Source of the DNA: Rhodospirillaceae bacterium
GTDB taxonomy: Bacteria; Pseudomonadota; Alphaproteobacteria; UBA6615
Reading direction: 5' to 3'
NCBI GenBank assembly: GCA_038140435.1
Contig: JAYQGE010000001.1
Span: forward strand, 16,228-80,227
DNA length: 64,000 nt
Shown here: in pieces, positions 3,068 to 56,327 of the stretch
Position numbering within the stretch: the first letter of the stretch is position 1
Layout of the letters: each line of letters starts with the position of its first letter
Made by a program: the position numbers and the translations under genes
Notes under the pieces: model-generated
The model's input: the letters and a program-made list of their open reading frames with translations, nothing else
The model's database searches: none
What the model was told of the DNA's origin: nothing

Positions 3068-3284
3068 GGGTATCGCCGGGTCGGAAGCAGCCCATCTTAG
3101 GAGCCGCGCGGCGGGGCGAACGAAATATCGCCGACAATTCAATCTGTTGCTCATGCTGTGGGCAGGATGCCCGGGTTTGGGCTGACTCCGGGCCCCGGCG
3201 GGCCTATATTCGGCTCCGACTTTGTGCACTGCACCCAAGGCGCCGCATCGGCCGGACGCCCACTGAAATCGGGGAGACAAGAGA

Positions 3285-4445: not shown

Positions 4446-4471
4446 ACCCAGCCCTCCGGGAACGCGAATTC

Positions 4472-5473: not shown

Positions 5474-5533
5474 CCTGGTCAACGCTCTCTTAACCCGCCG
5501 TGGTTAGGCTCCGGTCGGATTGAGGGGCGAGCG

Positions 5534-5812: not shown

Positions 5813-5966
5813 GCGGGGTCCTTTCTCCGCCGTCACGCCCCGGCAAAACACCGAAACAATCAGACGGACGCATCCGCGCGGCGCGCATTCCTGGCGGTTC
5901 TGCTAGAATGCGCACGGCCTGGCGCACTCGCCCCTCGGCCAAACACCCACGGGATGGCGGAACCTG

Positions 5967-6491: not shown

Positions 6492-9400
6492 AGTTCCGAT
6501 CCCGCGCCGGGGAAAACCACCAGCGGCAGCATCCCGAACACGGATGTGAGGGTGGACATGAAGATTGGCCGGACACGGTTCTGGGTCGCCAGCATGATCG
6601 CGTCGTCGGCGTCCATCTCGTCTTCACGAATGTGATAGAGTGTCTGGTGCACCAGAAGGATCGCGTTGTTCACCACGATCCCGGTCAGGATCACGAAGCC
6701 GAGCATGGTCAGCATGTCGAGCGGTTGCTGGACCCAGATGTTCAGAATGGCGAGGCCGGCGATGCCGCCCGCGGCCGCCACTGGCACCGTCAGCATGATG
6801 ATCAGCGGGTAAATGAAGCTCTCGAACAGGACCGCCATCACCAGATAGACGATGATGACCGCCAGGAGCAGGTCGATCACCAGTTCGTTCCAGGTCTCGA
6901 GGAGCTTGTCGGCGGTGCCCGTTAGCCGGATGCTGACGCCGTCCGGCAGCCCGCCTTCCTGCATCGGTTTGACGACTTCCTCCTGGATCAGCTCCAGCGC
7001 CTGCTGCAGGGGTGTGTCGGCGTTGGGCCGGACCTGGAGGCGCACGGTCCGCGCGCGCTCGGCGCGCCGCACCTCGGTCGGGCCGGAGGTAATCCGCACA
7101 TTGGCGAGGCCCTCGACCGGCACGATACGCCCGTCGCGGGTGACGACCGGCAGCGAGCCGATGCCCTGGGTCTGGTCGATCACGTTGCGCGGTCCCGTGA
7201 GCGTCAGGTCGATGCGCTTGCCGTCCACCGTGATCTCGTCAACACGCAACCCGTCGTTGAACGCGTCTACCGCCTGGCCAAGCGCGCGGGCGGACAGTCC
7301 ATTGTCGGACAGCGCCAGCCGGTTCGGCTCGACCCGGACCTCGGGTGCGGACAGGGTCAGGCTCGGGATCGGCCGCACCTGGTTGCCTTCGGAGAACGGA
7401 AAGCGCGGCGCGAGCCGGATGAACACATCGAAGGCCACCTGGTAGATCTGTTCGAGGTCCGAACCGCGGATGTCCACGTCGATGGTCCGCCCGCTGCCGA
7501 GCGAGCGGCCGAAGAGCGATGGCTGGCTCGGGAAGGTGCGGACGCCCGGGTCCTGGCGTCCGGCATCCTGCAGGACCGGTATGAGCTCCGCCGCCCGGTT
7601 CGGATCGACGGCCGTCCCCCCGATGAAGGCCCGCCCGGCGAAGGGCACCCGGATGAAACGCTCGAACTTCGGCGGCTGGCCCGGTTCGGACTCCGGGCCG
7701 GTCTCCGATGCCCAGAGATTTCGGGTCCGGTTCGCGATCCGCTCGGTGATCTCGGTGACGGTGTCGAGATTGTATCCCGGCGGCACGTTCACGAATCCGA
7801 AGACGAAGTTGCGGTTGCCCGTCGGCAGATAGTCGAGCTTCGGCGCGAAGACCAGCGTGAACGCGCCCGACGCAAGGGTGATCGCCCCGACGACGACGAG
7901 CGCGCGCAGCTTGGAGCGCACGACCATCCGGGTGAAATCCTGCCAGAAGGTCACGAACCGCGTGGCGAAGTCGTCGATGACCGGAATGCGCAGCGTGGTT
8001 TCACCCTCGGCGCGGCTCCTGACCAGCAGGCGGTTGGCGAGTGCGGGGATGACGGTGACGGAGACGAGCAGCGACAGCATCACCGAGACTGAGATGGCCA
8101 CGGCGATGTCGCGGAACAGCTGGCCGGCCTCGAGCTCCATCACCAGGATCGGGATGAAGACCATGACCGTCGTGAGCGACGACACGAGAACCGCCGGCCA
8201 CACCTGGGATGCGCCGAGCCGGGCGGCCTCGGCGCGCGAGTGTCCCTCCTGGCGAAGCCGGTAGATGTTCTCGAGCACGACGATCGCCGCATCGACCACC
8301 ATGCCAACCGCGAAGGCGATGCCGGCGAGACTGATCACGTTCAGCGAACGGCCGAGCGCCGCCATCGCGACGAACGAGCCGACGACGGACACGGGAATGG
8401 CGAGGGACACGACGAGGGTCGGGCGCCAGGAGCGCAGGAACAGCATCAGGATCAACGCGGCCAGGATGCCGCCGACCACGATATTCTGCTGCACGAGCGT
8501 GATGGCCGAGTTCACGTAGAGCGTTTCGTCGAACACGTTCTCGACGATCAGCCCGACGCGATCGAGCGGTCCCTCGGCGAGATCTTTGATGACGCGATGG
8601 ACCTCGTCCATGACGGTCAACACGTTTGCGCCCTGTTCGCGCGTCATGTTGAACGCCATGGCACGTTCATCGAAGCGGTGGGGCAGCGCCTGGGCTTCCT
8701 TGTAGCCGAGCTCGACATGGGCGACATCGCGGAGCGTGATGCGTCCGATGCCGCCGTCTTCGCGGTCCGCGTCCGAGCGCAGGACCACGTCGAGGACCTG
8801 ATCCGGGGTGTTGAAGTCACCCTCGGTGCGCACGACGTAGGCGCGCTTTCCCTCCTCGACGTCGCCGCCGGAGATGGAGGCGTTTTCCGCCCGCAGCCGA
8901 TCGACCACGTCGCCGACGGTCAGGCGGAACTTGGCGAGCTGCTCGGGTGCCATGATGATGCGCATCTCGCGCTCGGTCTCGCCGAAGATGTTGACGCCGG
9001 AAATGCCCGGGATGCGCTCGATCCGTTCCTGGACGACATCTTCGAGGAAGTCGCCATAGGTGATGAGATCCCGGTCGTTTCCCTTCTGGCGTCGCAGTAC
9101 GAACCAGGCGATCGGGTTGTCGTCGGTGCCCGAGGTGCGCAGCGTCGGCTCGTCGGCTTCCTCCGGGTATCCCGTCACCCGGTCGAGCCGGTTCGCAACC
9201 AGCAGCAGCGCGCGGTCCATGTTCTGGCTTGGCGCGAATTCGAGCGTGATATCGGAGCGCCCGGTGCGCGCGCGGCTCTCGATGGAGCGCACGCCCTCGA
9301 TCCCCTTGAGGACCTCCTCCTGGCGATTGACGATCTCGCGCTCGACCTCCAGCGGTGACGCGCCCGGCCAGAAGGTGTTCACGATGATGACGGGCTGGCG

Positions 9401-37664: not shown

Positions 37665-38843
37665 ATGAACATCAAGGACGAGATCGCCCGCGACCACGAA
37701 CTGCTGACCGTGTGGCGCCGGGACTTCCACGCCCATCCCGAGCTGGCGTTCCAGGAGGAGCGTACCGCCGCGCTGGTCGCCGAGCGGCTCGAGAGTTTCG
37801 GGGTCGAGGTCCATCGCGGTATCGCCAAGACCGGCGTCGTCGGCCGGCTGAGCGTCGGGACGGGCAATCGCGCGATTGCGCTGCGCGCCGACATGGACGC
37901 GCTGCCGATGGAGGAGGGCAACGATTTTGCCCACGCCTCGGAGACACCCGGCCTCATGCATGGCTGCGGCCATGACGGGCACACGACGATGCTCTTGGGT
38001 GCGGCGAAGTATCTCGCCGAGACGAAGCAGTTTGACGGCACGGTCTATTTCGTGTTCCAGCCGGCCGAGGAGGCCGAGGGCGGCGCCGCGGTGATGGTCA
38101 AGGAGGGCTTGTTCGAGAAGTTCCCGGTCGAGTCCGTCTACGGCATGCACAACTGGCCGGGAATGCCCGTGGGCGAGTTCGCCATCGCATCCGGGCCCAT
38201 GATGGCGGCCTTCGACATCTTCGACCTCACCATTCGCGGGCGGGGCAGCCATGCGGCGATGCCCCACCAGGGGGTCGACAGCATCCTCATGGCGTCGAAG
38301 GTGGTGGACGCGTTGCAAAGCATCACGAGCCGGAACATCGACCCCATCGACTCCCTCGTTGTGTCCGTTACCCAGATCCACGGCGGCGACGCCTATAATG
38401 TGATCCCGGACGAGGTGGTGCTGCGCGGCACGGTGCGGTCGTTCAGCGAGGCGGTGCGCGACGGCGTGGAACCGGCGATGCGCCGGATCGCCGACGGGGT
38501 GTGTGCGGCGTTCGGCGGCACCGCGGAGCTGCGCTACGAGCGGCGCTACCCGGCGACCGTGAACAGCGTTGAGGAGACCGAGCATGCCGAGGCAGCGGCG
38601 CTGGCAATCGTCGACGATGCGAAGATCGACCGCAAACCGGTCCCGAGCATGGGCTCGGAGGACTTCGCCTACATGCTGCGCGAGAAGCCGGGGAGCTATG
38701 TCTGGGTCGGCAACGGGGCAGCCGAGGGTGGCTGCATGCTTCACAACCCGGGCTATGACTTCAACGACGAGATCATTCCCATCGGGGTGACCTACTGGTC
38801 CGAACTGGTGGAGCAGGTGCTGCCCGCGGACCGGTCGGAATAG
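37665..38843 (+). CDS. M20-family amidohydrolase (hippurate hydrolase / aminoacylase type)
   Basis: ..MHGCGHDGH.. metal-binding motif, FQPAEE. 392 aa. Confidence 0.85.
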   Translation: MNIKDEIARDHELLTVWRRDFHAHPELAFQEERTAALVAERLESFGVEVHRGIAKTGVVGRLSVGTGNRAIALRADMDALPMEEGNDFAHASETPGLMHGCGHDGHTTMLLGAAKYLAETKQFDGTVYFVFQPAEEAEGGAAVMVKEGLFEKFPVESVYGMHNWPGMPVGEFAIASGPMMAAFDIFDLTIRGRGSHAAMPHQGVDSILMASKVVDALQSITSRNIDPIDSLVVSVTQIHGGDAYNVIPDEVVLRGTVRSFSEAVRDGVEPAMRRIADGVCAAFGGTAELRYERRYPATVNSVEETEHAEAAALAIVDDAKIDRKPVPSMGSEDFAYMLREKPGSYVWVGNGAAEGGCMLHNPGYDFNDEIIPIGVTYWSELVEQVLPADRSE

Positions 38844-38910
38844 GCGCCAACAGGCCTAATTTCCGTTAACCATATGGCAAGGCTTCGGCGCCACTCTGTG
38901 CCCCGAGCCT

Positions 38911-39201
38911 ATGTCACTGATTCTGCATATCGTAATCATCGCGTCCTATTTCGTGCTGGCGACCGCCGTGGCACTGGTTGCGCCCGCGCTTGTGCCGTCC
39001 CTGACGGCCGACCTGGCGCCGCTGGCCGCGGGCATCGTGTTCGTCGCCTGCGCGCTCGCGCACCTGGTGTTTGCCCAGTCGGAACGCAACCGGCGCCTCG
39101 TCGAGGAGCTGTCCCTGGTGCGCCGCCAGACGCGCGAGATCGCCGAGGACCTGCTTAACACCCAGACCCAGGCGCTCCAGATGCGCCAGGTGATCGACTA
39201 G
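38911..39201 (+). CDS. N-terminal fragment (2 TM + coiled coil) of a membrane-anchored EAL protein, ending at an in-frame TAG
   Basis: Two TM helices, then a helical linker. Same reading frame as the EAL ORF 33 nt downstream. Confidence 0.5.
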   Translation: MSLILHIVIIASYFVLATAVALVAPALVPSLTADLAPLAAGIVFVACALAHLVFAQSERNRRLVEELSLVRRQTREIAEDLLNTQTQALQMRQVID

Positions 39202-39234
39202 GCCGGCCGCGCCGGCGAGCAGCGAGTCTCGGAG

Positions 39235-40146
39235 GTGGTTTCCGAGGTCAAGGTGCTGCAGGGGCTGATCGAGGCCTTCTCGCGCAAGCAGGCCGAAAGC
39301 GCGCTCTCCGGCGAGGTCGAGCTGGCCGAACGGCCGCGGCTGGTTGCGGTCGAGGGCGGCAAGGCGGTCAGCGCGCCGTCGGCCGACGATCTGGGGAGCG
39401 TCGACGACCCGGAGGTGATCGACATCGTTCGCGAGGCGCTGCGCCTCGACCGGGTGGATGTCTATCTGCAGCCGATCGTCAGCCTGCCCCAGCGCAAGAA
39501 CCGCTACTATGAATGCTACACCCGGATCCGCAGCGAGGACGGCACGGTCATCGGCCCGGGCCAGTATATCGGCGTGGCGGAGCGCGAGGGGATGGTCAGC
39601 GCCATCGACAACATGCTGCTGTTCCGCTGCGTGCAGCTGATCCGGCGCACCCAGAAGCGCAACTACGACACGTCCTTCTTCTGCAACATCTCCCGCGAGA
39701 GCCTTGGCGACACCGCCTTCATCGGCGACTTCGTGGACTTCGTCTCGGAAAATCCCGACCTGGCGCCGAAGCTTTACTTCGAATTCGGCCAGAGCGACAT
39801 CGAGACCGCCCCGCCGGCGACCATCGGCAACCTGGCCCGGCTCGCGGACCTCGGGTTCCGCTTCTCCCTCGACCAGGTCACCCATCTCAACCTGGACATC
39901 CAGGGGCTGTCGGCCAAGAACTTCCGGTTCGTGAAGCTCGACGCATCCTTCCTGCTCGACCGGGACCGGGATCTCGTCGGCGATATCGCCCGCGAGGACA
40001 TCAAGAAGATGCTCGATCGTGACGGGCTCGATCTGATTGTCGAGAAGATCGAGGACGAGGCCCAGCTGGTCGAGCTGCTCGATTTCGAGATCGACTTCGG
40101 CCAGGGCTACCTGTTCGGCGAGCCCCGCCTCAGCCGCACCGACTGA
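39235..40146 (+). CDS. EAL-domain protein (c-di-GMP phosphodiesterase-like); likely the C-terminal part of a gene interrupted by an in-frame stop
   Basis: EAL signature (VREALRL..LQPIVSL), DFGQGY, and the ..N..E..ER.. catalytic residues. No plausible RBS for an independent start. Confidence 0.6.
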   Translation: MVSEVKVLQGLIEAFSRKQAESALSGEVELAERPRLVAVEGGKAVSAPSADDLGSVDDPEVIDIVREALRLDRVDVYLQPIVSLPQRKNRYYECYTRIRSEDGTVIGPGQYIGVAEREGMVSAIDNMLLFRCVQLIRRTQKRNYDTSFFCNISRESLGDTAFIGDFVDFVSENPDLAPKLYFEFGQSDIETAPPATIGNLARLADLGFRFSLDQVTHLNLDIQGLSAKNFRFVKLDASFLLDRDRDLVGDIAREDIKKMLDRDGLDLIVEKIEDEAQLVELLDFEIDFGQGYLFGEPRLSRTD

Positions 40147-40166
40147 CGCGCGCTTTCTTCTCGCCC

Positions 40167-41066
40167 GTGGACATGGCATACGCCTGTTCCATGAACACCG
40201 AGTTGCTTCCCGGCTTCCGCAGCATATCCGAGCGCTACGATCACCTGATCGTCGATCTGTGGGGCACCCTGCATAACGGCATCGAGCCGCTGCCCGGCGC
40301 GATCGAATGTCTGGAGCATTTCGGCGGCGCGGGCGCGCGGATCGTTCTCCTGTCCAACGCGCCGTTCCGGGTGTCCGGCGTTCGAGACGTGCTCGGCCAT
40401 ATCGGGATTCCCGAGACGATCTACGAGGATGTCTTCTGTTCCGGCGAGATCGCCTGGCGCGCCATTCGTGATCGCGCCGATCCCTGGCACGCGAAACTGG
40501 GCCGTCGTGCCGCGTTCATCGGGCCGGATCGCCATCGGCCCATGCTCGACAATCCCGGCATCGACGGCGCGGCGGACTTCGAGGATGCGGACTTCGTGAT
40601 CTGCACCGGGCCGCGCGACGCCGGTCATGCCCTCGACGACTACATCCCCGACCTCGAGCGCGCCGCCGCGGCGAAGCTGCCGATGATCTGCACCAATCCG
40701 GACCGCGAGGTTTTGCGCGGCGATGCGCGCGAGATCTGCGCCGGCGCGATCGCCGAAGCCTACGAGACGCGCTTCGGCGGCGACGTCGCCTGGCACGGGA
40801 AGCCGTACCGCCCCGTCTATGACGAGGTTCTCCGGATCCTCGGCGAACCCGATCGCGCGCGGGTCCTGATGATCGGCGACGGTCTCGGGACCGATGTCGC
40901 GGGAGCGGCGGTCGCAGGCATCGATGCGGCCTTCATCGTCGGCGGAATTGCCGCCGAACGACTGGGTGCCGCGCCGGGTGCGCTGCCGGACCCGGAGCGG
41001 CTTGCGACCCTGCTCGATGAGGTGGGCCAGGCGCCGCGCTACGCGATGCCCGGGCTGTTCTGGTAA
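40167..41066 (+). CDS. HAD-superfamily hydrolase, subfamily IIA
   Basis: DLWGTLHNG (DxD-like motif I variant), MIGDGLGTDV motif IV. Confidence 0.7.
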   Translation: MDMAYACSMNTELLPGFRSISERYDHLIVDLWGTLHNGIEPLPGAIECLEHFGGAGARIVLLSNAPFRVSGVRDVLGHIGIPETIYEDVFCSGEIAWRAIRDRADPWHAKLGRRAAFIGPDRHRPMLDNPGIDGAADFEDADFVICTGPRDAGHALDDYIPDLERAAAAKLPMICTNPDREVLRGDAREICAGAIAEAYETRFGGDVAWHGKPYRPVYDEVLRILGEPDRARVLMIGDGLGTDVAGAAVAGIDAAFIVGGIAAERLGAAPGALPDPERLATLLDEVGQAPRYAMPGLFW

Positions 41067-41114
41067 CGATTCTCTTACGTAAACCGGCATAGGTATCGGC
41101 ACCGGATAGCGCCG

Positions 41115-42998
41115 ATGCGGCGCGGGGCGGAAGGACAATCGGTAGGACGGGAATTGGGCATTCACCGCCACGCGTGGAACTGGTCCTTCGATGCGCCGCC
41201 CGAGACGATCTGGCCGATCCTGTCGGACACCGCGCGTTTCAACGAGGCGGCGGGGCTCCCGAAGCACGAAATCACCGAAACTCCTCAGGATGACGGTTCG
41301 GTGCTCTACACGGCCGAGGCGAAGCAGGGGCCGTTCCATATGGCCTGGCGCGAGGAGCCGGTGAACTGGATCGCGAACCGCTGGTTCGAGCATCGCCGCC
41401 ACTTTACGCGGGGGCCGTTCCGGATGGTCTTTGCGAACCTCGAGATCACGTCAGCAGGCGCCGACGGCGCGCGCAGCGAGGTGCATTACACCCTTGAGGT
41501 CGAGGCCGCGAACCTGGTGGGCGAGATTCTCCTGCGGACAGTCTTCTTCAAGGCCACCGACAAGATGTTCGGCGCGCTGATCGACGCGACGCGGGACTAC
41601 GCACGGGGAAATCGCGAGACTCCGTTCGACGCCACGCCACCCGAACTGGACCTGGCCGCGCGCCAGCGTGTCGATCGTGCGATCGCGGCCATCAACGAAA
41701 CCCCGCATGCCCACGGTCTTGCGGAAGCTTTGGCGGCACACGCGACCACTGCCCAGGAGGTGGATGTGGTCAAAATTCGCCCGCTGGCGCTGGCCCGTCG
41801 TTGGGATGTGCCCGCCCGCGATGTGATCGAGCTTTGCCTCGAGGCGACGCGTGCGGGCCTGCTCGACCTGCGCTGGGATATCCTGTGCCCGCGCTGCCGG
41901 GTCGCCAAGTCGATCTCCGCAGGACTCGACGAGTTGCCGACGGGCGCCCATTGCGGGACGTGCAACATCGACTATGACCGCGACTTCTCGCGCAACGTCG
42001 AACTGAGTTTCCAGCCGGCGGCAGGTATACGGCCACTGGCCTTCGGCGAGTACTGCCTGTTCGGCCCCATGAGCACACCGCATATCGTCGCCCAGGTCCG
42101 TGTCGCGGCGGGGGAGCCCCGCGAGCTGGAGGCCGAACTCGCACCCGGCCGCTATCTGGCGCGCACGCTCGAGGCCGGACCAGAGGCGGAACTCGACCAC
42201 GAGGGCGGCGGTTTCCCCGAGGTTCTGATCGGCGATGGCAGCGTGACGACGGGCGCGCCGGCCGGGCCGGGCTTGCTGCGGCTCGTCAACACGTCCGCGC
42301 ATGACCGGAATGTCGTGATCGAGGAGCGCGCCTGGGAGCGCGACGCCCTGACAGCGGACAGGGTCACCGCGATGCAGGCGTTCCGCGACCTGTTCTCGGA
42401 CCAGGTCCTGCGTCCCGGCGACGAGGTGGCGATCCAGCGGGTCACGCTGATGTTCACCGACCTTCGTGGGTCCACGGCACTTTATGAAACCATGGGGGAT
42501 GCGCGGGCCTACGGGCTGGTGCGCGACCATTTCGCCTTCCTGACCGGCATCGTGCGCGATCACGAGGGCGCGGTCGTGAAGACCATCGGCGATGCCGTGA
42601 TGGCGGCGTTCCTGGAGCCGGGCCATGCGCTTGCCGCGGGGTTGGAGATCCAGGCTGCGGTTGCGGCCTTCAACCGCGATCATGCGCCGACGGATGGCGG
42701 CGAGGAGCTGGTCGCTATCAAGGTCGGCATTCACGAAGGCCCGTGCATCGCGGTCAACCTGAACGACCGGCTGGACTATTTCGGGACGGCGGTGAACCTA
42801 ACTGCCCGTCTCGAGGGGCAGAGCCGGGGCGGCGATATCGTGATCTCGAAGAGCCTCGCCGCCGACCCGGGCGTCGCTGCGCTCCTCGAGGGCCGCGCAT
42901 TGAGCGAGGAATCGGCGGAACTGCGGGGATTCGACGCTGCCGTGCCGTTCCTGCGCATCGACCGCTCTGCCGGCGCCCCGGTCGTGGCGGGCCGATAG
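41115..42998 (+). CDS. class III adenylate/guanylate cyclase with a large N-terminal sensor region containing a Cys4 zinc ribbon
   Basis: C-terminal cyclase homology domain ([12 protein letters not shown].., [16 protein letters not shown]). The N-terminal about 400 aa carry CPRC..x20..CGTC. Confidence 0.8.
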
Positions 42999-43047
42999 AC
43001 CGGCCCCCGGCCACGCATTATACTTCCCGGCCATTCCTGTCGGGGCA

Positions 43048-45218
<2,171 letters not shown>

Positions 45219-45219
<1 letters not shown>

Positions 45220-48200
45220 TGTCGGGTTCCGGGGACGACTGGCGGGCCGACGAGGACGCGTCCGGGCCCGAACCGGAGCGCGAGGATGCGCCCGACGACC
45301 CCTTCGAAGACGTCTTCGACGACGACGAAGGATTCGATCAGCCCCGTGACGACCGCGACGGCGACAGGTATGGCGAGCCAGCGCCCCGCCGCCGCGCAGG
45401 CCTCAACTTCATGAGCTGGGTGCTGGGCCTGGCCGGGGCGGCGTGGCTCGCGTTTTTCGCCATGTTTGTCGCGCGCGCCATCGGCTGGTCGCTGGTGCCC
45501 CAGCTTCTGCCCTACGAGGTCGGCAGCCTCGTCGCGGGCCTGCTGGTGCCGCCAGGCTTTCTGTTCGCGCTCGCGGTTCTGGCCGCGCGCCGCCGCCGGC
45601 TCAACGACACACTGGCCGGGCTCGAGGAGCAGATTGCGCGCCTGGAATCGCCCTTTTCCAACGCGAACTCCGAACTGACGGAGCTTGGCGAGATGCTCGT
45701 CCTTTACGGGCAGGCCCTGCAGGAGGCGGTTGCGGATGCCCGTCGGCAGATGTCCGAGCTGCGGGGCGGATTCGCGCGCGAGGCGTCGGAGCTCGCCCAG
45801 ATCACCGAGGCACTCGCCAACATGATGATCTCGGCCAACGAATCCGCCGGAACCCAGGCCGGGGTTCTTGCGGACATGACCAAGCAGATCGAGGGGAACC
45901 TTCAGAAGATCAGCGGCGTCGGGAAGGGCGAGGCCGAGGTGATCGACGCCGCCTCGCGTCGCGCCGAGGAAGTCGTACAGCAGCTTCTGTCCGCGCTGCA
46001 TGAGCAGATCGCGGCCATCGAGTCCGGCTTCGAGAAGGCGGTCAACGAGACGGTCGGGCGCGTGTCGGGCACGGGCGATACGGCGGTCGAGGAAATTCGC
46101 GCCGTGGCGAACCAGCTCGCCGAACGTGCCCGGGAGGCCGTCGACACGGTGACCCAGCAGGCCGATGAGGCGGGCACCGCCATCGGCGACGCGGGTGCAC
46201 GAGCGGCCGGGGCAATTGCAGAGGCGTCGGATGACGCGCTGAGCAAGTCGGCGGCGCTGGGTGAGGAACTGGAACGGCGGTCGGCGGACGCCGGGGAGGC
46301 GTTCGAGGCGGCGATCGGTCGGGCGTCGGAGAGGCTTGCCGCCATGTCGGAGGAAGCCGCCGGACACGCGGAGCGGCTGGCGGCCGAGATCTCCGGCCAG
46401 ATGCAGCAGGCGGGGGGCGCACTCGACCGTGTCGTCGAGGCCATGGCCGCACAGCTCTCGGAGGTTTCGGACCAGGCCGGTCAGCGGGCGCGGGAGATCA
46501 CCGAGGCCGCTGCTGCGGAGATGGCACAGGCCGGGCGCGCGGTCGGCGCAAGCGCCGCGGAAACCCGCCAGGAGATCGAACGCATGACCGCGAACCTGCG
46601 CGAGCAGGCAGACGCCTTTGCCGCCATATCTCGCGCGAGCGTTGCGCAGGTGGATGCTGCGAGTGAGCGGCTGAACGCGTTTGCCGACGGTCTCGCGGCG
46701 GCGGGAGAATCGGCCGACGAACGCGCACGCGCTCTGGGCGACACGTATCGCAGCGAGGCGAGCGCGCTGGAAACAGTCGCGCGCAGCACGTCCGCCGAAG
46801 CAGAGCGACTCACGGCTGAACTGCGGAGCGCAGCGGGGGCGCTGTCTGCGTCCGCCGGCAGCATCGCGACCGGCGCGGCCGAGGCGCGCGAGGCGCTGGG
46901 AGAACATGCGCAGCTCGTGGAGACCGAGTATGCGCAGACGCTGAGCCGCGCCCAGCGCACCCGCGACGAGATTGTCGAGCAGCGGGAAGTCCTGGAATCC
47001 GCGGCGGATGCGGCGTTGGCCAGGATCACGGCGATCCGCGACACGCTGGGCGACAGCAGCCTGTCGCTCGATCAGGCCGCGGAGCGCGCCAGCGGCCAGC
47101 TGCGCGGCCTGCGTGAGCAGCTCGGCAACGATCAACATTTCATGTCGGAGATCGTCTCCGGCGCGGAGACCCGCTTCAGCGCGCTGGGCGACACACTGCG
47201 TGACAGCGCAGGCGATGTGACCGAGGCCTCCGGAATCGCCGAGGCCGCGGCGCGCAGTGCCCACGAGGCCTTGCGCCGCAACTCCCAGGAGCTGACGAAT
47301 GCCAGCGTGACCGCCGGTGCGCGGGCCGAAGCGCTCGGCGAGTCCCTGACCCAGCATACGGAGGCCCTCAACCAGTCGGCAGCGGACTCGCTGTCCCGCC
47401 TGACGGAGGTCCGGGACATGATCCAGCGCGAGAGCGACGCGGTCGAGGCGACGGCACGGGCGGCGATGGAAGGCCTGTCCGATGTTGCCGGCGCCATGCG
47501 CCAGCGTCGTGAAGAACTGACGACCAGTACGGAGGAGATGCGCCGCGCCGCCAACGATACCGAGGAGTCGCTCGCCGCCCGCAGCCGGGATGTGCGCGAG
47601 ACGATGGAATCGATTCTCGAAAGCTGGCGCGACCTCGGCGATGTTCTGGTCAGCCGTACGGACGCCCTGCGCGAGACCGGCGAGACCGCCGTGACGCGTG
47701 CCGAGGCGGTCCTTCAGACCATCGATCGCCACGCGGGTGATCTGTCGACGTCTGCCGATCGGATGGAAGGGCGTGTCAACGGGCTTGGCGAGCAGCTGCG
47801 CGAGCAGACGCGCGACATGCAGTCGGCGATCGAGCAGGTGGCGGAACGCGCCGAGACCATCGCCGCGACGTTCCGGATGCAGGAGCGGGCGCTTGTCGAG
47901 GCCGCCGAGGATGCCGGCCGGAAGGCCGATGAAGTGCGGGTGTCGTTCATCGATGCCAACCGGGGCGTGTTCCTGCACACCGTCAACCGCGTGCTCGATA
48001 CGCTCGGTTCACTGGGAAACGAAATCGAGGAAGCGCTGGATGGTGCTGCGGCGCCGGAGATCATGCGCAGGTTCTCGAAGGGTGACCGGGGGGTCGCGCT
48101 TCGCCGCATTTCCGCGCGCGCGGGAGATCCGATCGCGGTCAACCGCGTGCGTGAGCTCTACGAGGATGACGAGGACTTCCGGACGCTGGCGACGCGCTAC

Positions 48201-48335
48201 CTGCGCGAATTCGAGCGCCTGCTGGCCCAGGCAGGCGATGCCGATCCGGATGAACTTCTGAGCGCCAGTCTGCTGACCGCCGACGTCGGCAAGGCCTATC
48301 TGCTGCTGTCCCGCGCCGTCGAGCGCCACAAGTAA
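45219..48335 (+). CDS. large (1038 aa) membrane-anchored coiled-coil protein of unknown function
   Basis: ATG overlaps the mcm stop (TGATG). Acidic disordered N-terminus, two TM helices, then about 900 aa of Ala/Glu/Arg-rich amphipathic heptad/11-mer repeats. High GC3. Confidence 0.7.
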
Positions 48336-48529
48336 ACGCAACCAAACTCGTTGCGCGTGCACCGGGCCTGACAAATGTCAGGCTTGCAGGATGATCCGTT
48401 CGCGATTGTAAGGGGGAGTATATAAAAAATTACCGAATGGAATAAAAAAGATCATAAGAATAGACAATAAGAAATTATAATGGCATTGTTCATGCGATTT
48501 GGAACATCATTGTCGCCGGTGCATTACAA

Positions 48530-49006
48530 ATGGAAGGTCAGATAGACCAAATCGACCGAAAACTCCTGGACGTGGTCCAGGACGATGCGCGCCTGTCGTT
48601 CCGGGAGATCGGGCGCCGGGTCGGCATGTCCACGCCGGCCGTGGCGGAGCGCATTCGGCGGCTCGAGGCGGCCGGCATCATTCGGGGATATGCCGCGCAA
48701 GTGGATCGCGCGGCGCTCGGTCGGGAGATCGGGGCGTTTGTGCGCCTCTCGGTCTCGGACAAGGATTTCCGCCGTGTGTCCGGCCTGTGCCGGTCCCTCG
48801 ACGCGGTGGTGGAGTGTCATCACATCACCGGCGAGGACTGTTTCGTCATTCGCGTTGCCGTTGCGTCGATCGCCGAACTCGAGGATGTCATCTCCCGTTT
48901 CCGCAAGATCGGATCCGCGCAAAGCTCGGTCATTCTTTCGTCCCCGGTCGACGGCAAGCCGGTGCCGGTGGACGGTGCGCTGTTGCCGCCTGCGGCGGTT
49001 CGCTAG
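48530..49006 (+). CDS. Lrp/AsnC-family transcriptional regulator
   Basis: ..DRKLLDVVQDDARLSFREIGRRVGMSTPAVAERIRRLE.. HTH, plus the RAM domain. Confidence 0.85.
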   Translation: MEGQIDQIDRKLLDVVQDDARLSFREIGRRVGMSTPAVAERIRRLEAAGIIRGYAAQVDRAALGREIGAFVRLSVSDKDFRRVSGLCRSLDAVVECHHITGEDCFVIRVAVASIAELEDVISRFRKIGSAQSSVILSSPVDGKPVPVDGALLPPAAVR

Positions 49007-49015
49007 GTTGGTGCG

Positions 49016-50029
49016 ATGACGAAGGATGACGGAAAGACATCGGCGAACGCCACCGACGACCCGGCTAGCCTCGCTGCCCGGGTGCGCGCTGGCGACCGGC
49101 GGGCGCTGGCCCGCGCGATCACCCTCATCGAATCGACCCGCGAGGATCATCGAAGCCAGGCCGAGGCGCTGCTCGAATTGCTGCTGCCCCATACAGGTCG
49201 GGCGAGCCGTATCGGCATCTCCGGGGTCCCCGGCGTGGGCAAGTCCACCTTCATCGAGGCATTCGGGCTCGACTGGATCGATGCGGGCCACCGGGTGGCC
49301 GTTCTGGCCGTTGACCCGTCATCGCGCCGCAGCGGCGGTTCGATTCTGGGCGACAAGACCCGGATGGAACAGCTTTCGCGCGCGCCCGACGCCTTCATCC
49401 GGCCGTCGCCGACCGCCGGCACGCTCGGCGGGGTCGCGCGGCGCACCCGCGAGGTCATGCTCGCCTGCGAGGCCGCCGGGTTTGACGTGATCCTGATCGA
49501 GACCGTCGGTGTGGGGCAGTCCGAGACGGCGGTCGCGGACCTCGTGGACATGTTTGTCCTTTTGCTGCTGCCGGGGGGTGGCGACGAGCTACAGGGCCTG
49601 AAGCGCGGGATCATGGAACTCGCCGACCTGCTGGTGATCAACAAGGCGGATGGGGACATGACCGACGCCGCGGAACGGTCCGCGGCCGAGTATTCAAACG
49701 CCGTACGGTTGCTGCACCCGGCGGCGTCGGACTGGGTTCCCCCGGTCCTGACCTGTTCATCCCTCGAGAATCGGGGAGTTTCCGAGATTCGCGAGACGGC
49801 CGAGCGCCATCGCGCACAGGCAGAGGCGAACGATGCGCTGGAATCCCGCCGCGCGGACCAGGCCCGGCGCTGGATGTGGGGCGAGGTCGACGAGCATCTG
49901 CTCGCGGCCTTTCAGCGCCATCCCGAGGTCCGCGAGCGGCTCGCGGCCCTCGAGGCGCAGGTGTCGCGCGCGCAAATCACACCCTCGGCCGCGGCCCAGG
50001 CCCTGCTCGAGGCGTTTCGCGGGGGCTGA
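49016..50029 (+). CDS. meaB: methylmalonyl-CoA mutase-associated GTPase MeaB (ArgK family)
   Basis: P-loop GVPGVGKST, ..[14 protein letters not shown].., NKAD. Confidence 0.85.
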
Positions 50030-50127
50030 ATCCGCGCGACGCCGGGCTTGACCCGCCTCCCGGCTTCGCCTAAAAACACCGCCGTTCGCGCCGATTTCGG
50101 CGCGTTAGCCGTTCATGGAGCAAGGAA

Positions 50128-50416
50128 TATGTCGCGTCGCTGCGCCATCACAGGCAAGGGTGTGCTGACCGGGAACAACGTCAGCCACGCGCATAACAAG
50201 ACACGCCGCCGGTTCCTGCCGAACCTGCAGACGACCATGCTGTACAGCGAGACGCTGGCGCGTGGTGTCCGCGTCAACCTGACCGCCCGCGCGATCCGCA
50301 CGATCGAGCACAAGGGTGGCGTCGATGCGTTCCTGCGCGGGACGGCAGCCTCGAAGCTGCCGCGTGAGCTCCGCCGCATGAAGCGTGACCTCGAGAAGGC
50401 CGGCACGACCGCCTGA
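50128..50416 (+). CDS. rpmB: 50S ribosomal protein L28
   Basis: [31 protein letters not shown].. is canonical L28. GGAGCAAGGA RBS. Confidence 0.9.
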
Positions 50417-50442
50417 TCGCGCGCATCGCCCGGTCTGACGAA

Positions 50443-50468
50443 AAGCCCGCGTCATGCGGGCTTTTTTG
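50443..50468 (+). terminator. rho-independent terminator of rpmB
   Basis: AAGCCCGCgtcatGCGGGCTT stem-loop followed by TTTTTT. Confidence 0.8.
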
Positions 50469-50533
50469 CGCCCGGTGCCTGTATGATCACGATTGCCCGA
50501 GAATGAAACCCGATCCACCGGCGCGTCCAAGCC

Positions 50534-51769
50534 ATGTCCGACTATCCAGGTTTCGCGTTCGAAGTCACCCGCACCGCAACGGGTGAGGCGGGTTGGCCGG
50601 GCGCGGCACGCCGGGGCCGGATCACCACGCCCCACGGTGTGATCGAGACGCCCGCTTTCGTCTTCTGTGCGACACGGGGCGCGCTGCGCGGCGTGTTGCC
50701 GGCCCAGGCCCGAGCCGAGGCGACGCAGATCATTCTCGGCAACACCTATCACCTGATGTTGCAGCCGGGTGCCGAGCGCGTCGCGCAACTCGGCGGCCTG
50801 CACAGGATGATGGGTTGGGACGGCCCGATGCTGACCGATTCGGGCGGGTTCCAGATCTTCTCCCTCGGTCGCGGTGGCGATCAGCAGGAAATCAAGGGCA
50901 GCCGGACCGATGTGCGCGATCCCTCGCTGCTGGCCATCGACGAGGCGGGGGCCTCCTTCCGCTCCTACATCGACGGGTCGAAGGTGACGCTCACGCCCGA
51001 GGATTCGATCCGGATTCAGCGTCAGATCGGGGCGGACATCATCCTCGTGCTCGACGAATGCACGCCCTATCACGTCGATCGGGACTACACGGCCCGGTCG
51101 ATGGAGCTGACCCATCGCTGGGCGTCGCGCTCGATCGCGGCGTTCGGGGAGGCCGAAGAAGGCTCCGCTGGCCCCCAGGGGCTCTACGGGATCGTCCAGG
51201 GCGGGGTCTATGAGGACCTGCGCCGGGAGAGCGCGGAGTTCACGGCCGCGCAGCCCTATTTCGGATATGCGGTGGGCGGCTGTCTTGGCGGTACGCCTGA
51301 AGAGATGGACGAGGTGGTGGCGCTTGCCATGGCGCCGCTGAACGCCGCGACGCCGTCCGCCCGGCCGATTCATCTGCTGGGCGTCGGCAGTGTCCGCGAT
51401 GTCTGGTACGGGATCGCGAAGGGGATCGACACCTTCGACTGCGTCAACCCGACCCGGCTGGCGCGCCATGGCAGCGCCTACATCCGGCCCGGCCTCGGCG
51501 AGACCGAGAACGGCCGGGAATTCATAAACCTCAAGAATGCGCGCTTCCGCGAAGACGATGGCCCCGTCGATCCCGAGTGCAACTGCGCGACCTGCACCAC
51601 CGTTTCGCGCGCCTACCTGCACCACCTGGTCAAGGCTGGCGAACTCAACGCGGTCAGCCTGCTGGCGGTCCACAATGTGCGCTTCATGAACAGGCTGCTC
51701 GAGGATGTGCGCGCGGCGATCGACAATGACGACATTGCCGCACGGCGGGCTCACTGGATCGACGGCTGA
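50534..51769 (+). CDS. tgt: queuine tRNA-ribosyltransferase
   Basis: DSGGFQ, VLDECTPY, GIVQGG, and the zinc motif C-x-C-x2-C..H (CNCATCTTVSRAYLHH). Confidence 0.85.
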   Translation: MSDYPGFAFEVTRTATGEAGWPGAARRGRITTPHGVIETPAFVFCATRGALRGVLPAQARAEATQIILGNTYHLMLQPGAERVAQLGGLHRMMGWDGPMLTDSGGFQIFSLGRGGDQQEIKGSRTDVRDPSLLAIDEAGASFRSYIDGSKVTLTPEDSIRIQRQIGADIILVLDECTPYHVDRDYTARSMELTHRWASRSIAAFGEAEEGSAGPQGLYGIVQGGVYEDLRRESAEFTAAQPYFGYAVGGCLGGTPEEMDEVVALAMAPLNAATPSARPIHLLGVGSVRDVWYGIAKGIDTFDCVNPTRLARHGSAYIRPGLGETENGREFINLKNARFREDDGPVDPECNCATCTTVSRAYLHHLVKAGELNAVSLLAVHNVRFMNRLLEDVRAAIDNDDIAARRAHWIDG

Positions 51770-51782
51770 GACGTCTCGCGAA

Positions 51783-52739
51783 TTAGGGCAAGAGCTCGAA
51801 CATCAGCAGCAGGCTGCGCTGGTCGTCGGAAAAGTTGTTGTCGCTCGCGACGTAGATCAGCGTCTTGCCGCGCCCGGCCGCACGGGCAGTGATGGCTTCG
51901 AAATTCTCGGTCACAAACGGCGACTCAAGCCGGGCGATCTCGAATGTCTGGATCGGTGCGCCCGGTCGCAGGCCGCGCTGCGGGATGCGCGTGATTCGCG
52001 AGCCCACGTCGCGGGGCGGCGTGAAGCGTCGCTCGAGCACGACGATGTCGCCGTTGGCCAGAAGCGCGGCGCCGGTGGGCTTGTAGGGTGGGAACAGTGT
52101 GTAGGCCATCGGCGTCCATTCCGCGCCGTTGCCGAGCCAGGCAGTCGGAAAGGCGCGGGTCGTGATCAGATCTTCGGTGATGGGCAGGATCTGTTTGTCC
52201 GCGGTTTCGCTCGCCGCCTCGATGCCCCGGTTCGCGCGTGCGCGCTCGAGACCGGGTGGCGTGATGAGCAGGCGTGGCGAGGAGCGCAGGGGCGCGAACG
52301 AGGCCGGAAAATGGAGGAGCCGGTGATTGCGCTCGAAGGCGACCACCCAGCCACCGTTTGGCATCCGCGCAATCGCCTCGATGTCGGAATTTCGCTCGTC
52401 GTTGATGGAGCGGCCGGCAGCGCCGGTGACCGGCGCGATATCCTCGAGCTTCGCGACGGACAGGTCGCCGGTCCGGTCGTAATCGAGGAACAGTTCCGCC
52501 CTGTAACCTCGATCGGTCAGCATGGTGAGTGCGCGGCCGGCGGAGTCGATCTCCATGGCCGAGATGCCGCCGAAGTTCGGATTGTCGAAGTTTAGTTCCA
52601 GTCCGCCGCGATAGATCAGTCGTCCCACGCGGTCCTGTCCGCTCAAACCTTCATGCAGCTGGATCGGCGTGGAGTCCGCAGCGGCCGGAGTGGCCAGCAG
52701 TGTGCCGGCGACCAGCAGGGCTGAAAGGAATCGCATCAT
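51783..52739 (-). CDS. secreted phytase-like esterase family protein
   Basis: Signal peptide at MMRFLSALLVAGTLLATPAAA. ..GISAMEID..LTDRG.. and the C-terminal ..SDNNFS..Q.. typical of PF13449-like proteins. Start chosen to avoid overlap with cobT. Confidence 0.6.
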   Translation of the reverse strand: MMRFLSALLVAGTLLATPAAADSTPIQLHEGLSGQDRVGRLIYRGGLELNFDNPNFGGISAMEIDSAGRALTMLTDRGYRAELFLDYDRTGDLSVAKLEDIAPVTGAAGRSINDERNSDIEAIARMPNGGWVVAFERNHRLLHFPASFAPLRSSPRLLITPPGLERARANRGIEAASETADKQILPITEDLITTRAFPTAWLGNGAEWTPMAYTLFPPYKPTGAALLANGDIVVLERRFTPPRDVGSRITRIPQRGLRPGAPIQTFEIARLESPFVTENFEAITARAAGRGKTLIYVASDNNFSDDQRSLLLMFELLP

Positions 52740-52797
52740 CCGTCGTTTATAGCCGTATTCCGAGGCGCGGACAGGGCCGAACTTCGCCGGTGCACGA

Positions 52798-54687
52798 TCA
52801 GGCGACGCGGCGCGAGGCTCCCCGGGAGGTGCGCTGGGCAACGCCGTCTTCCTCGTCGAACAGCTCGGCGAGCTGGTCCATCACGGTGCCGCCAAGCTGT
52901 TCGGCGTCGACGATCGTCACCGCGCGCCGGTAGTAGCGCGTCACATCATGGCCGATGCCGATCGCCAGCAACTCGATGGGCGAATAGGTCTCGATCCATT
53001 CGATGATCTGACGCAGGTGGCGCTCCAGATAGTTGCCGGCGTTCACCGACAGCGTGGAATCGTCGACCGGAGCGCCGTCGGAGATGATCATCAGAATGCG
53101 GCGCTGCTCCGAGCGGGCGAGCAGCCGGTTGTGGGCCCACAGGAGTGCCTCGCCGTCGATATTCTCCTTGAGCAGCCCCTCGCGCAGCATCAGGCCGAGA
53201 TTCTTGCGCGCGCGGCGCCAGGGCGCGTCGGCGGACTTGTAGATGATGTGGCGCAGGTCGTTGAGCCGGCCCGGGTTGGCGGGCTTGCCGGCGGCGAGCC
53301 AGTTCTCACGGGCTTGTCCGCCCTTCCACGCGCGGGTCGTGAAGCCCAGGATCTCGACCTTCACGCCGCACCGCTCGAGCGTGCGCGCCAGGATGTCGGC
53401 GCTCATCGCCGCGACCGAAATCGGGCGGCCGCGCATCGAGCCGGAATTGTCGATGAGCAGGGTGACCACCGTGTCGCGGAAGTTGGTGTCTTCTTCCATT
53501 TTGAACGACAGCGGGTGTGCCGGGTTCGTGACGACGCGGGTGAGGCGGGCCGTATCGAGCAGACCTTCCTCGAGGTCGAATTCCCAGTTCCGGGTCTGTT
53601 TCGCCATCAGGCGGCGCTGCAGCCGGTTGGCAAGCCGCGAGATGACGCTCTGGAGATGGCCGAGCTGCTGGTCGAGCTGTTGGCGCAGGCGCGACAGTTC
53701 GTCCGGGTCGCACAGGTCCGGCGCCTCGACGATCTCGTCATATTCGGTCGTGAAGGCGCCGTAGACGAACTGTTCACCCTGGTTGTGTCCGTATTCGGGT
53801 GGTCGCCAGGGCTGGCCCGGGGCGTCGGGGTCTTCGTCGCCCGCGCCCTCTTCCATGTCGCCGTCGCCGTCCTCGAACGGCATGTCCATTTCCTCGCTCT
53901 CGGCGCCGGCCTGCTCGTCCTCGCCCTCGCCCTCCATGGCCTGGGCTTCGCCGTCGCTCTTGCCTTCGCCGGTGCTCTCGCCGTCGGCGTCGTCCTGTTC
54001 GTCACCGCTGTTGTCGTCGGAATCGGGTTCGGTCGCGAGCTCTTCCTCCGCGAGGCCGAGATCGGAGATCATCTGCCGTACAACGTCCTGGAACGCGAGT
54101 TGATCGTCGAGACTGTCGCTCAGGTCCGAGAGGGCGGCGCCGATCTTGGATTCGACGAACGGACGCCAGACATCGACCATCGCGCGGGCCGAGGGTGGCG
54201 GTGCCATGCCGGTGAGCGCCTCACGCGCCAGCAGGGCGACGGCCTCGGACACCGGCGCCTGGTCGCGCTGGGTGACGCGCGCATATCCCTTGTCACGGCA
54301 GCGCATCTCGAGCGCGGCGCCCAGATTGTCCGCGACCCCCGACATCCGGTTTGCGCCGATCGCCTCGACGCGCGCCTGTTCGACCGCGTCGTAGAGCGCA
54401 CGCGCGGCGGGAGCTGTCGGCACCCGGGACTGGTGCAACTCGGCATTATGGTGGCGCAGACGCAACGCCAGTGCGTCGGCTTCGCCGCGCACGACGCCAA
54501 CCTCCTCGGCCGGAAGATCGCGCGCGGGCAGAGGCAGGCGCGCTTCCGCTCCGGCGACTCCCGGTGGATCGGGCGTGAAGGAGACGGTCAGTTCGGGCTC
54601 GCGGGCCATGGCTCGCATGGCCGCCGCCGTCACCCGGCGGAACTCCTCGACCGGTCCGTCGTTGTTGCCTCTGTTCGAGCCCGCCAT
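52798..54687 (-). CDS. cobT: cobaltochelatase subunit CobT-like (vWA-domain protein with acidic linker)
   Basis: 629 aa. Long Asp/Glu-rich central region, C-terminal vWA/MIDAS (LLIDNSGSM). Confidence 0.85.
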
Positions 54688-54694
54688 CGGGATC

Positions 54695-55702
54695 CTACTG
54701 GGTTGGCGCCGGGGCGATCACGCCGTCTTCGAGCTCGGTGCCGAAGCAGCGCTGGTAATACTCGGCGACCGTGGATCGCTCGACCTCGTCGCACTTGTTC
54801 AGGAATGTGACCCGGAAGCCGACCGGAATGGAACCGAAGATCTCGGCATTCTCCGCCCAGGTGATGACCGTGCGCGGCGACATGACCGTGGAGATGTCGC
54901 CGGCAACGAAGCCCGAACGGGTCAGCTCGGCCGTCGCGACCATCGCGGAGATCTTCTCGCGACCCTCCTTGCCCTCGTAGCTCGAGCATTTCGCCATGAC
55001 GATATCGACTTCCTGCTCATGCGGCAGGTAGTTGAGCGTCGTGACGATGTTCCAGCGGTCCATCTGCGCCTGGTTGATCTGCTGGGTGCCGTGATAGAGG
55101 CCCGTCGTGTCGCCCAGGCCCACGGTGTTTGCGGTCGCGAAAAGCCGGAAGCTCGGATGCGGCCGGATCACCTTGTTCTGGTCGAGAAGGGTCAGCTTGC
55201 TGTCGGCCTCGAGCACGCGCTGGATCACGAACATCACATCGGGCCGGCCGGCGTCATACTCGTCGAACACGAGCGCGCAGGGGTGCTGCAGCGTCCATGG
55301 CAGGATGCCCTCGCGGAACTCGGTCACCTGAGCGCCATCCTGCAGGACGATTGCGTCCTTGCCGATCAGGTCGATACGGCTGATGTGGCTGTCCAGGTTG
55401 ACGCGCACGCACGGCCAGTTGAGTCGTGAGGCCACCTGCTCGATATGCGTGGACTTGCCGGTGCCGTGGTATCCCTGGATCATCACGCGGCGGTTGTGCG
55501 TGAACCCGGCTAGGATTGCGAGCGTCGTGTCATGGTCGAACTGGTAGGTCTCGTCGAGGGCCGGGACGTGCACGGTTTCCTCGGAGAAGGCCGGCACCTC
55601 CATGTCGGAATCGATGCCGAAAACCTGGCGCGCCGAGACCTTGATGTCCGGCTCCGGGTTCGCGGGCATATCTGCGCTGGTGATCGATTCTGTCGCTTCC
55701 AT
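54695..55702 (-). CDS. cobS: cobaltochelatase subunit CobS-like (MoxR/AAA+ ATPase)
   Basis: Walker [10 protein letters not shown], Walker [10 protein letters not shown]. Start MEATES. Confidence 0.85.
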
Positions 55703-55730
55703 AATCCGGTCCACTTTCGTCAAAATGTCT

Positions 55731-56327
55731 TCATTCGGTGCGGCCCCGTTCGGGGTCGACCGATTGCATAAGGGTTGCGTAGGCTTGGTTGATCGCCTTG
55801 AGGCGTTCTTCCGCCAGCTTGTCGCCGCCATTCGCGTCAGGATGGTGCTGTTTGACCAGCGCCTTGTAGCGCCGTTTTATAGCGTCTGCGGTGACCGGAG
55901 GCGACAGTTTCATTGTAGCAAGCGCGTCAAGCGTTTCGGGGTCCAGTCCGGCATTCGCGGCGGCCGACGCCCCGCGCTCCATGCCGTGGCGCTCCGCGTC
56001 GAAAAAGCCGAACTCGTCGCGCATGCCGTCGCCGATGTGCCGGCCGTTGAACGGCCAGGTCGGCCGGTTCCAGAAGGTCTTGCTGTGCCGGTCGGACTCG
56101 ATTTCGGCCTCCGACATGCCATCATAATAGTTCCAGGATTTGTTGTACGCGCGCACATGATCGAGACAGAACCAGATATATTCGCGCAAGTTCTCCCGCG
56201 AACTCGGCGCGCGGAACTCGCCCGGCAGGTCGCAGCCGGGTTCCGCGCAAACGTGCGCGCGGGACGTACTGTCACCGCCTTCGGTGAGCAGGTCGTCCAG
56301 GTCGATGGATTTTCGCCGGCGGGTCAT
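55731..56327 (-). CDS. J-domain protein conserved upstream of cobS-cobT
   Basis: C-terminal J domain with HPD (..[16 protein letters not shown]..). N-terminal Cys-containing region. Confidence 0.75.

Follow-up and report, generated by a model that had tools for sequence, protein, structure and literature searches.

A short RgsE/GPR-family membrane protein encoded directly downstream of methylmalonyl-CoA mutase in a Rhodospirillaceae bacterium

Here we report on a protein-coding gene, designated X, in a stretch of 64,000 nucleotides from a Rhodospirillaceae bacterium (contig JAYQGE010000001.1, positions 16,228 to 80,227), which is called the window in its full length. X starts with ATG directly at the end of mcm, the gene of methylmalonyl-CoA mutase (MCM), and is followed by a gene for an Lrp/AsnC-family regulator (lrp) and by meaB, which encodes the G-protein chaperone of the mutase. 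X belongs, as a short member of the Rhodospirillales type, to the family of RgsE from Sinorhizobium meliloti and GPR from Agrobacterium tumefaciens. The family itself and the existence of homologues in Rhodospirillales were known beforehand (PMC7327166). Four aspects are, to our knowledge and in the literature searched, undescribed: how the two conserved end modules are defined, how large the family is and over which lengths it ranges, the 25-residue repeat of its rod, and the long-lived, operon-like pairing with mcm in one clade.

The locus and the architecture of X

The original prediction placed an open reading frame (ORF) of 1038 amino acids between mcm and lrp-meaB, with its start codon overlapping the mcm stop codon; reading of the sequence and matches to Pfam and NCBIfam models bear this out (Table 1). 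The final A of the mcm stop codon (TGA, 45217-45219) is at the same time the first base of the X start codon ATG (cc-TGATG-tcg). The mcm product matched NF006944 with 1242 bits over residues 5-719 of a model of 721 positions, so that its stop codon is the native one and does not lie elsewhere, as had been considered. The G + C content at third codon positions was 0.77-0.87 in each 100-codon block of X and the same in mcm and meaB, which identifies X as a genuine gene.

The region from 48334 to 48395, which includes two hairpins directly behind X, had a folding energy of -27 kcal/mol (RNAfold), and the hairpins are a possible end of the mcm-X transcript. They are followed by an AT-rich island, the sole place in the window with 100-nt windows below 45% GC (67% overall), which is probably a promoter or an Lrp-binding regulatory region for lrp-meaB. 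The hairpins and the AT-rich spacer between X and lrp fit two transcription units, mcm-X and lrp-meaB. Promoter and terminator scans yielded one promoter-like site before mcm and one before lrp (48368-48395), and were otherwise uninformative. A scan of positions 38000-56000 against Rfam matched no family, the B12 riboswitch included.

Table 1. Features of the mcm-X-lrp-meaB region (window coordinates; those of X include the stop codon).
Feature	Position	Strand	Basis
mcm, methylmalonyl-CoA mutase, 723 aa, single-chain with B12-binding domain	43048..45219	+	PF01642 (787 bits), PF02310, NF006944
TGATG stop/start overlap of mcm and X	45217..45221	+	sequence reading
X, 1038 aa, RgsE/GPR-family membrane-anchored helical protein, putative scaffold	45219..48335	+	ORF list, coding signal, homology
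X, acidic disordered N-terminal tail, aa 1-57	45219..45389	+	charge, pLDDT
X, N-module, two-helix transmembrane hairpin, aa ~59-124	45393..45590	+	hydropathy, Lys/Arg distribution, pLDDT, RgsE alignment
X, helical rod, aa ~125-889	45591..47885	+	autocorrelation, AlphaFold2 model
X, C-module, aa 890-1038	47886..48332	+	conservation, HMM, AlphaFold2 model
Two stable hairpins directly 3' of the X stop codon, without U-tract	48337..48390	+	RNAfold
AT-rich island 5' of lrp, 28.7% GC	48405..48505	.	GC scan
lrp, Lrp/AsnC-family regulator	48530..49006	+	PF13404, PF01037
meaB, G-protein chaperone of MCM	49016..50029	+	PF03308 (374 bits), NF006958 (494 bits)

X consists of four parts: an acidic, disordered N-terminus, a membrane hairpin of two helices, an all-helical rod of about 770 residues, and a compact helical domain at the C-terminus. 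The acidic tail, the two transmembrane helices and the long helical remainder had all been predicted, and are confirmed by charge, by hydropathy and by an AlphaFold2 model. The net charge over residues 1-50 is -17, and residues 1-57 are poorly conserved and modelled with a predicted local distance difference test score (pLDDT) of about 40. This tail is a fast-evolving disordered extension. In the window it is about 30 residues longer than in relatives that are about 69% identical (e.g., L001 8001-8090; LNNN and PNNNN denote sampled loci and sampled family proteins), and the long version is shared with the near-identical L015.

The hydrophobic segments of the hairpin comprise residues ~64-92 and ~101-124. 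Five lysine or arginine residues precede the first segment, none lies in the loop of 13 residues, and four (RRRR) follow the second segment, a distribution that places both termini in the cytoplasm. The periplasmic loop bears the family motif LP(H/Y)E.G...AG...P, and residues 59-143 were modelled with a pLDDT of about 90. The rod contains a single proline among 775 residues and has a pronounced repeat (autocorrelation z = 12.3 at lag 25, with harmonics from 50 to 150). According to the secondary structure assigned by DSSP to the AlphaFold2 model, it is made up of long helices (149-282, 287-473, 479-635, 640-788 and 793-941) with short breaks between them; three of the five have about 150 residues, corresponding to six 25-mers. 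The full-length model, based on alignment A5, was confident for the hairpin and the C-module, and had a predicted template modelling score (pTM) of 0.35, so that the packing of the five long helices is not fixed by it.

The C-terminal region, which had already been noticed as conserved-looking, is the best-conserved part of the protein (about 150 residues). Modelled alone, the C-module is compact and all-helical (pLDDT 92, pTM 0.79). Three residues (F918, G1024 and Y1027) do not vary in any of the alignments A1, A2 and A5; two more (G955 and D1022) do not vary in A1 and reach a conservation of at least 90% in A2 and A5. The C-terminal 149 residues had no Pfam match even at E ≤ 1. In agreement with the original prediction, no catalytic motif was found in X, and X contains neither a P-loop GTPase nor a B12-handling domain, as present in MeaB-type G3E GTPases and in adenosyltransferase. 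In summary, X is integral to the inner membrane, and its architecture combines an N-in/C-in hairpin, a long rod of helical repeats, and a conserved globular C-terminal domain.

Homology to RgsE and GPR and extent of the family

RgsE (SMc00190, 2089 aa) and GPR (Atu1348, 2115 aa), scaffold proteins of polar growth in Rhizobiales, are anchored in the membrane by two transmembrane helices, with most of each protein located in the cytoplasm (PMC7327166). Localization to the growth pole (ring), defects in shape after depletion, and interaction with TolQ, RgsA and RgsS have been described for this family (PMC7327166, PMC8262873). The C-terminus of GPR is essential for function and localization (PMC8262873). 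For comparison with X, the GPR sequence was taken from Fig. S3 of PMC8262873 (text obtained by optical character recognition, 2099 of 2115 residues). RgsE was represented by a coding sequence of 2089 aa, annotated as 'kinesin', which was located by tblastn on a mislabelled S. meliloti chromosome record in PLSDB; its full-length identity to GPR is 43%, as has been reported for RgsE.

The alignment of X residues 924-1038 to the 113 C-terminal residues of GPR had an identity of 34.5% (E = 1.7e-13), and the identity of the C-module to those of RgsE and GPR is 34-36%. A profile hidden Markov model (HMM) of the C-module matched RgsE with 124 bits and GPR with 99.6 bits (E = 1.5e-23 after scaling to 1.8 billion sequences), and comparison of a 15-member family alignment with RgsE (hhalign) gave a probability of 99.85% and an E value of 1.2e-30 over the terminal 115 columns. 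At the other end of the protein, residues 3-208 of X aligned colinearly with RgsE 56-253 (BLASTP, E = 6e-6). The N-module HMM matched GPR 140-187, i.e., the second transmembrane helix and the juxtamembrane segment, with 20.9 bits (conditional E = 1.2e-8) and RgsE with 18.7 bits; the match of the hairpin is modest but colinear. On these sequence comparisons, the hairpin and the C-terminal domain of X have homologues in RgsE and GPR that follow one another in the same order, and the membership of X in the family is established. The earlier proposal that X is the likeliest gene in the window to have an undescribed function no longer applies, because X belongs to a described family whose Rhodospirillales homologues, although distant, have already been mentioned (PMC7327166).

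Besides the hairpin and the homologous domain at the extreme C-terminus, X shares with RgsE and GPR a very long, continuous alpha-helical region in the cytoplasm. It is only half their size, and its rod has a period of 25 residues, whereas those of GPR and RgsE have periods of 22 and 11. RgsE and GPR contain multiple PF01442 domains, whereas X stays below the threshold of this model, and X lacks the Pro-rich low-complexity stretch that precedes the C-terminal domain of GPR. The genomic contexts also differ: rgsE is flanked by a divergent Hpt gene, and X forms an operon-like pair with mcm.

The likeness to TipN, the new-pole landmark of Caulobacter crescentus, is of a different kind. The original prediction had suggested, among other options, a TipN-like scaffold with two transmembrane helices and a coiled coil, which pointed in the right direction, since X is homologous to RgsE and GPR and GPR has been described as similar to TipN (PMC8546619). 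TipN has about 882 aa (PMC13170164) and consists of two transmembrane helices joined by a periplasmic linker of about 15 aa, the rest being a cytoplasmic coiled coil; it interacts with Tol-Pal, as suggested via TolA (bioRxiv 10.1101/784066). TipN and X thus have the same topology, a similar size and a similarly short connection between the helices (linker of ~15 vs. loop of 13 residues), and both TipN and RgsE are linked to the Tol system, the former through Tol-Pal and the latter through TolQ. The likeness of X to TipN consists of the published statement on GPR and the shared architecture only.

The extent of the family was determined with an exhaustive HMMER search over 1.84 billion cluster representatives. 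The matches numbered 1187 at E ≤ 1e-3, of which 362 had E ≤ 1e-10. With few exceptions, they extend to about residue 1036 of X and to the extreme C-terminus of the subject. The N-module, a variable rod and the C-module occur together in 46 full-length members of 246-1900 aa, in which the N-module has the motif LPHE(L/I)G..AG...P...W. The C-module comprises about 135 residues, is always located at the extreme C-terminus, and has the consensus FL..A....E.LNS.A.D..R.L....P...W..Y..GD...F.RRL...D......Y..D..FR..V.RY...FE.LL.QA...D....L..TF.TADVGKLYL.L..A.GR. Neither end module was matched by a Pfam or NCBIfam model in the 15 members scanned. The length of the rod varies more than 10-fold across the family, and its period of 25 residues was found in nearly all non-Rhizobiales members tested, in short and long forms alike. 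Most members are from uncultured bacteria, and the few classified ones belong to Alphaproteobacteria; a Sphingomonas protein of 774 aa matched the C-module HMM with 125 bits. A word-indexed protein search with full-length X, swamped by Ala/Glu-rich words, returned five weak matches and no self-match. The same kind of search is biased towards short or near-identical sequences; started with the C-module alignment, it yielded nothing but short fragments, each with the name 'hypothetical'.

The cluster names of 20 family members were uninformative or spurious ('methyl-accepting chemotaxis protein', 'Zn-ribbon', 'YhgE', 'YicC'). If the source names of P0207, P0213 and the S. meliloti coding sequence were taken at face value, X would be a chemoreceptor or a protein of the SMC or kinesin type, and weak matches to NCBIfam SMC models were indeed obtained for 3 of 15 members. 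Such matches are, however, typical of coiled-coil composition, and scans with Pfam and NCBIfam models detected no signalling domain of methyl-accepting chemotaxis proteins, P-loop, motor domain, or SMC hinge or head in X and 14 other members. These scans effectively refute such an identity, which is extremely improbable.

The rod itself invites comparison with exchangeable apolipoproteins (PF01442, PF07464) and phasins, with which it shares amphipathic helical repeats rich in Ala, Glu, Arg and Gln. GPR has been classed under PF01442, and bacterial apolipoprotein-like proteins have been found on lipid droplets (PMC8262873). X might accordingly be pictured as a coat protein of lipid or polyhydroxybutyrate inclusions, connected to mcm through acyl-CoA and ethylmalonyl-CoA metabolism. 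The resemblance to apolipoproteins and phasins, which the original prediction had pointed out, exists in the form of weak profile matches, but all of them are sub-threshold: X scored 41.6 bits against PF01442, far under the gathering score of 90, and 38 bits against ApoLp-III, with no individually significant stretch; DUF948 was also sub-threshold. The rod period of 25 differs from the 11 or 22 residues typical of exchangeable apolipoproteins, and X, unlike phasins, is permanently anchored as an integral membrane protein with a globular C-terminal domain. Moreover, the conserved, family-defining parts are the non-repetitive hairpin and C-module and not the amphipathic repeats. We consider such a coating function quite improbable.

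Two minor features of the family were noticed. Many long-form members (P0022, P0029, P0103, P0146, and many C-modules in alignment A2) end with ...KAA or ...AA after a short basic tail and resemble in this respect the C-terminal degrons recognized by ClpXP in Alphaproteobacteria; the protein in the window ends with ERHK, without such a tail. In addition, a small, divergent gene with an Hpt domain is located immediately 5' of the family member both in S. meliloti (L095, 2087-2455 on the reverse strand, rgsE at 3073-9342 on the forward strand) and in Sphingomonas parapaucimobilis (L096, 4829-5122 on the reverse strand, family member at 5225-7549 on the forward strand). This neighbour spans two orders and hints at a link to a phosphorelay; it was not seen in the window or in other sampled loci (L006, L007, L013, L097-L099).

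Conservation of the mcm-X junction

In five close relatives (about 69% identity; marine Rhodospirillaceae and Alphaproteobacteria metagenome-assembled genomes), the gene order and the TGATG junction are identical to those in the window. X is the fastest-evolving gene of the block, with 69% identity compared to 80-92% for its neighbours (89% for mcm). A metagenome scan with the narrower alignment A3 added 80 loci, with a bias towards the short-form clade. Dereplication at 70% identity of the C-module yielded 24 lineages, three of which were uninformative. In 14 of the 21 informative lineages, mcm is located directly 5' of X on the same strand; in the other seven it is not. The gaps between the two genes are mostly -4 to +30 nt. 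The TGATG junction is identical in L001, L002, L003, L005, L015, L018 and L020, overlaps of 4 nt (ATGA or GTGA) are present in L012, L043 and L067, and other lineages have a spacer of 4 nt (TGAnnCCATG).

The position of X behind mcm is ancient and widespread in the short-form clade. The fortuitous insertion that had been considered as one explanation is refuted by this deep conservation. The surrounding block (EAL-HAD-cyclase-mcm-X-...-meaB-rpmB-...-cobT) is likewise ancient and unusually stable. In L009, where X is only about 26% identical, the order is EAL-HAD-...-mcm-X-HlyC-ABC-meaB-rpmB-...-cobT. The junction has also outlived rearrangements: in L011, mcm and X are 16 nt apart, with meaB-rpmB-tgt inverted on the other side of mcm, and in L012 the two genes overlap by 4 nt in a neighbourhood that is otherwise different. 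Conversely, X is present in the same block in L014, from which both mcm and meaB are missing.

Concerning the order mcm-X-lrp-meaB, whose conservation the original prediction proposed to check, the pair mcm-X is conserved as described above, but X is followed by lrp in only 1 of 22 lineages, so that the four-gene order is not a conserved unit and lrp is a feature specific to the window's own lineage. A direct adjacency of mcm and meaB was found in none of 15 lineages in the sampled clade. Outside the short-form clade, family members were in unrelated contexts with no linkage to mcm (L006, L007, L013, L097-L099, Sphingomonas, and rgsE of S. meliloti); the context of X is unrelated in L089 as well. 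It had been argued that homologues from a known family that are never linked to mcm or meaB would speak against a connection; this is the situation in Rhizobiales, in Sphingomonas and in the long-form clade, but members of X's own clade are mostly linked.

As a control, we used the functionally unrelated pair meaB-rpmB, whose genes are neighbours in 10 of 13 lineages and have been inverted as a unit in L011. It is about as conserved as mcm-X, and adjacency within the block is therefore in itself no proof of a functional tie.

This bears directly on the view that X, as an accessory dedicated to the B12 enzyme, would tether or scaffold MCM, MeaB or both at the inner membrane through its conserved C-terminal domain, with co-translation as the reason for the pairing. 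Such a role would agree with the tight, co-directional arrangement (overlaps or distances of up to about 30 nt) in 14 lineages that have a C-module identity below 70% to one another, with the persistence of the pair in L011 and L012, and with the location of X inside the interval between mcm and meaB throughout the clade. It would also agree with a natural population in which an in-frame deletion has removed the hairpin and the whole rod, leaving a protein of 151 aa (MSDNRGEEW followed by the C-module) that starts 4 nt after the mcm stop codon (L031 2736-3191, L030 93-548; proteins P0174-P0183). The copies of this variant, which come from several samples, are 98-99% identical, indicating a single recent deletion and not long-term selection; a first reading of these ORFs as a sign of selection on the C-module was downgraded for this reason. 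Against the accessory role stand the about equal conservation of meaB-rpmB, the retention of X without mcm and meaB in L014, the unrelated contexts of the other clades, and the rate of evolution of X, which is much higher than that of mcm; moreover, the homologues RgsE and GPR function in the envelope and in polar growth and have no connection to MCM. With meaB-rpmB about equally conserved, X persisting without mcm and other clades unlinked, a dedicated role in the mutase reaction is unproven, and we regard the accessory role as rather unlikely.

A different disruption of X was observed in L016 (1144-2557; C-module 88% identical), where the gene is split over several frames with internal deletions and a C-module ORF of 158 aa is intact; this represents either pseudogenization or an assembly error.

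Proposed function of X and neighbouring genes

Taken together, the architecture, the homology and the genomic context are best described by a picture in which X is a non-enzymatic membrane scaffold of the RgsE/GPR type whose expression is set by its pairing with mcm; we assign this picture a probability of roughly 0.6. By analogy with the interactions of RgsE with TolQ and of TipN with Tol-Pal, the hairpin would dock X to envelope machinery in the membrane. The rod may serve as a spacer or as an element of self-assembly, with a length that changes in evolution as repeats are gained and lost, and the C-terminal domain may be a module for assembly or for binding of a partner, as suggested by the C-terminus of GPR. 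X is most likely co-transcribed with mcm and, in the lineage of the window, translationally coupled to it: the overlap of stop and start codon most likely makes the translation of X dependent on that of mcm, which would suit a low-copy structural protein. The pairing probably sets the level of expression and would not reflect a dedicated role in the mutase reaction.

Several points weigh against this picture. A scaffold function outside Rhizobiales would be extrapolated from proteins that have only the two end modules in common with X, and the rod of X differs from theirs both in its repeat (25 vs. 11/22 residues) and in missing the PF01442 threshold. The other Rgs partners have been reported to be absent from Rhodospirillales, and the authors suggested a possibly different role there (PMC7327166). 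The junction between mcm and X is tight and long-lived and outlasts rearrangements on both sides (L011, L012); this exceeds what synteny of the block would strictly require, and a genuine tie of X to the function of MCM could be the reason. For example, the C-module of the short forms might bind MCM or MeaB and thus place a B12 enzyme on a scaffold anchored at the membrane or the pole, or the synthesis of the scaffold might be tied stoichiometrically to propionyl-CoA metabolism. Either would explain the tight junction across lineages in which X is only about 22-25% identical, but we consider such a tie unlikely.

Only a few landmark or scaffold proteins for polarity and zonal growth are known in Alphaproteobacteria; RgsE/GPR and TipN belong to them and have been treated as order-specific. 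The family delimited by the end modules is far larger and lacks annotation; it includes hundreds of cluster representatives and provides a defined C-terminal domain for modelling and testing. The natural series of lengths offers a way to ask whether the rod acts as a ruler, and the conserved gene pair poses the testable question of whether a metabolic operon is functionally tied to an envelope scaffold. If the linkage is only historical, X is an ordinary member of its family in a very stable gene block. For bacterial cell biologists the results are a useful lead, and the conserved gene pair is a curiosity, but a new kind of system is not demonstrated.

Two other neighbours in the block were recorded. 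Downstream, rpmB, encoding ribosomal protein L28, follows about 20-100 nt 3' of meaB, and both genes are included in positions 49016-50416 of the window. Directly 5' of mcm, a gene at 41115-42998 (forward strand) encodes a fusion protein of 627 aa with an SRPBCC/polyketide-cyclase-like domain, DUF5939 and an adenylate/guanylate cyclase domain. Many loci of the block have this gene in the same position, with identities of 54-83%.

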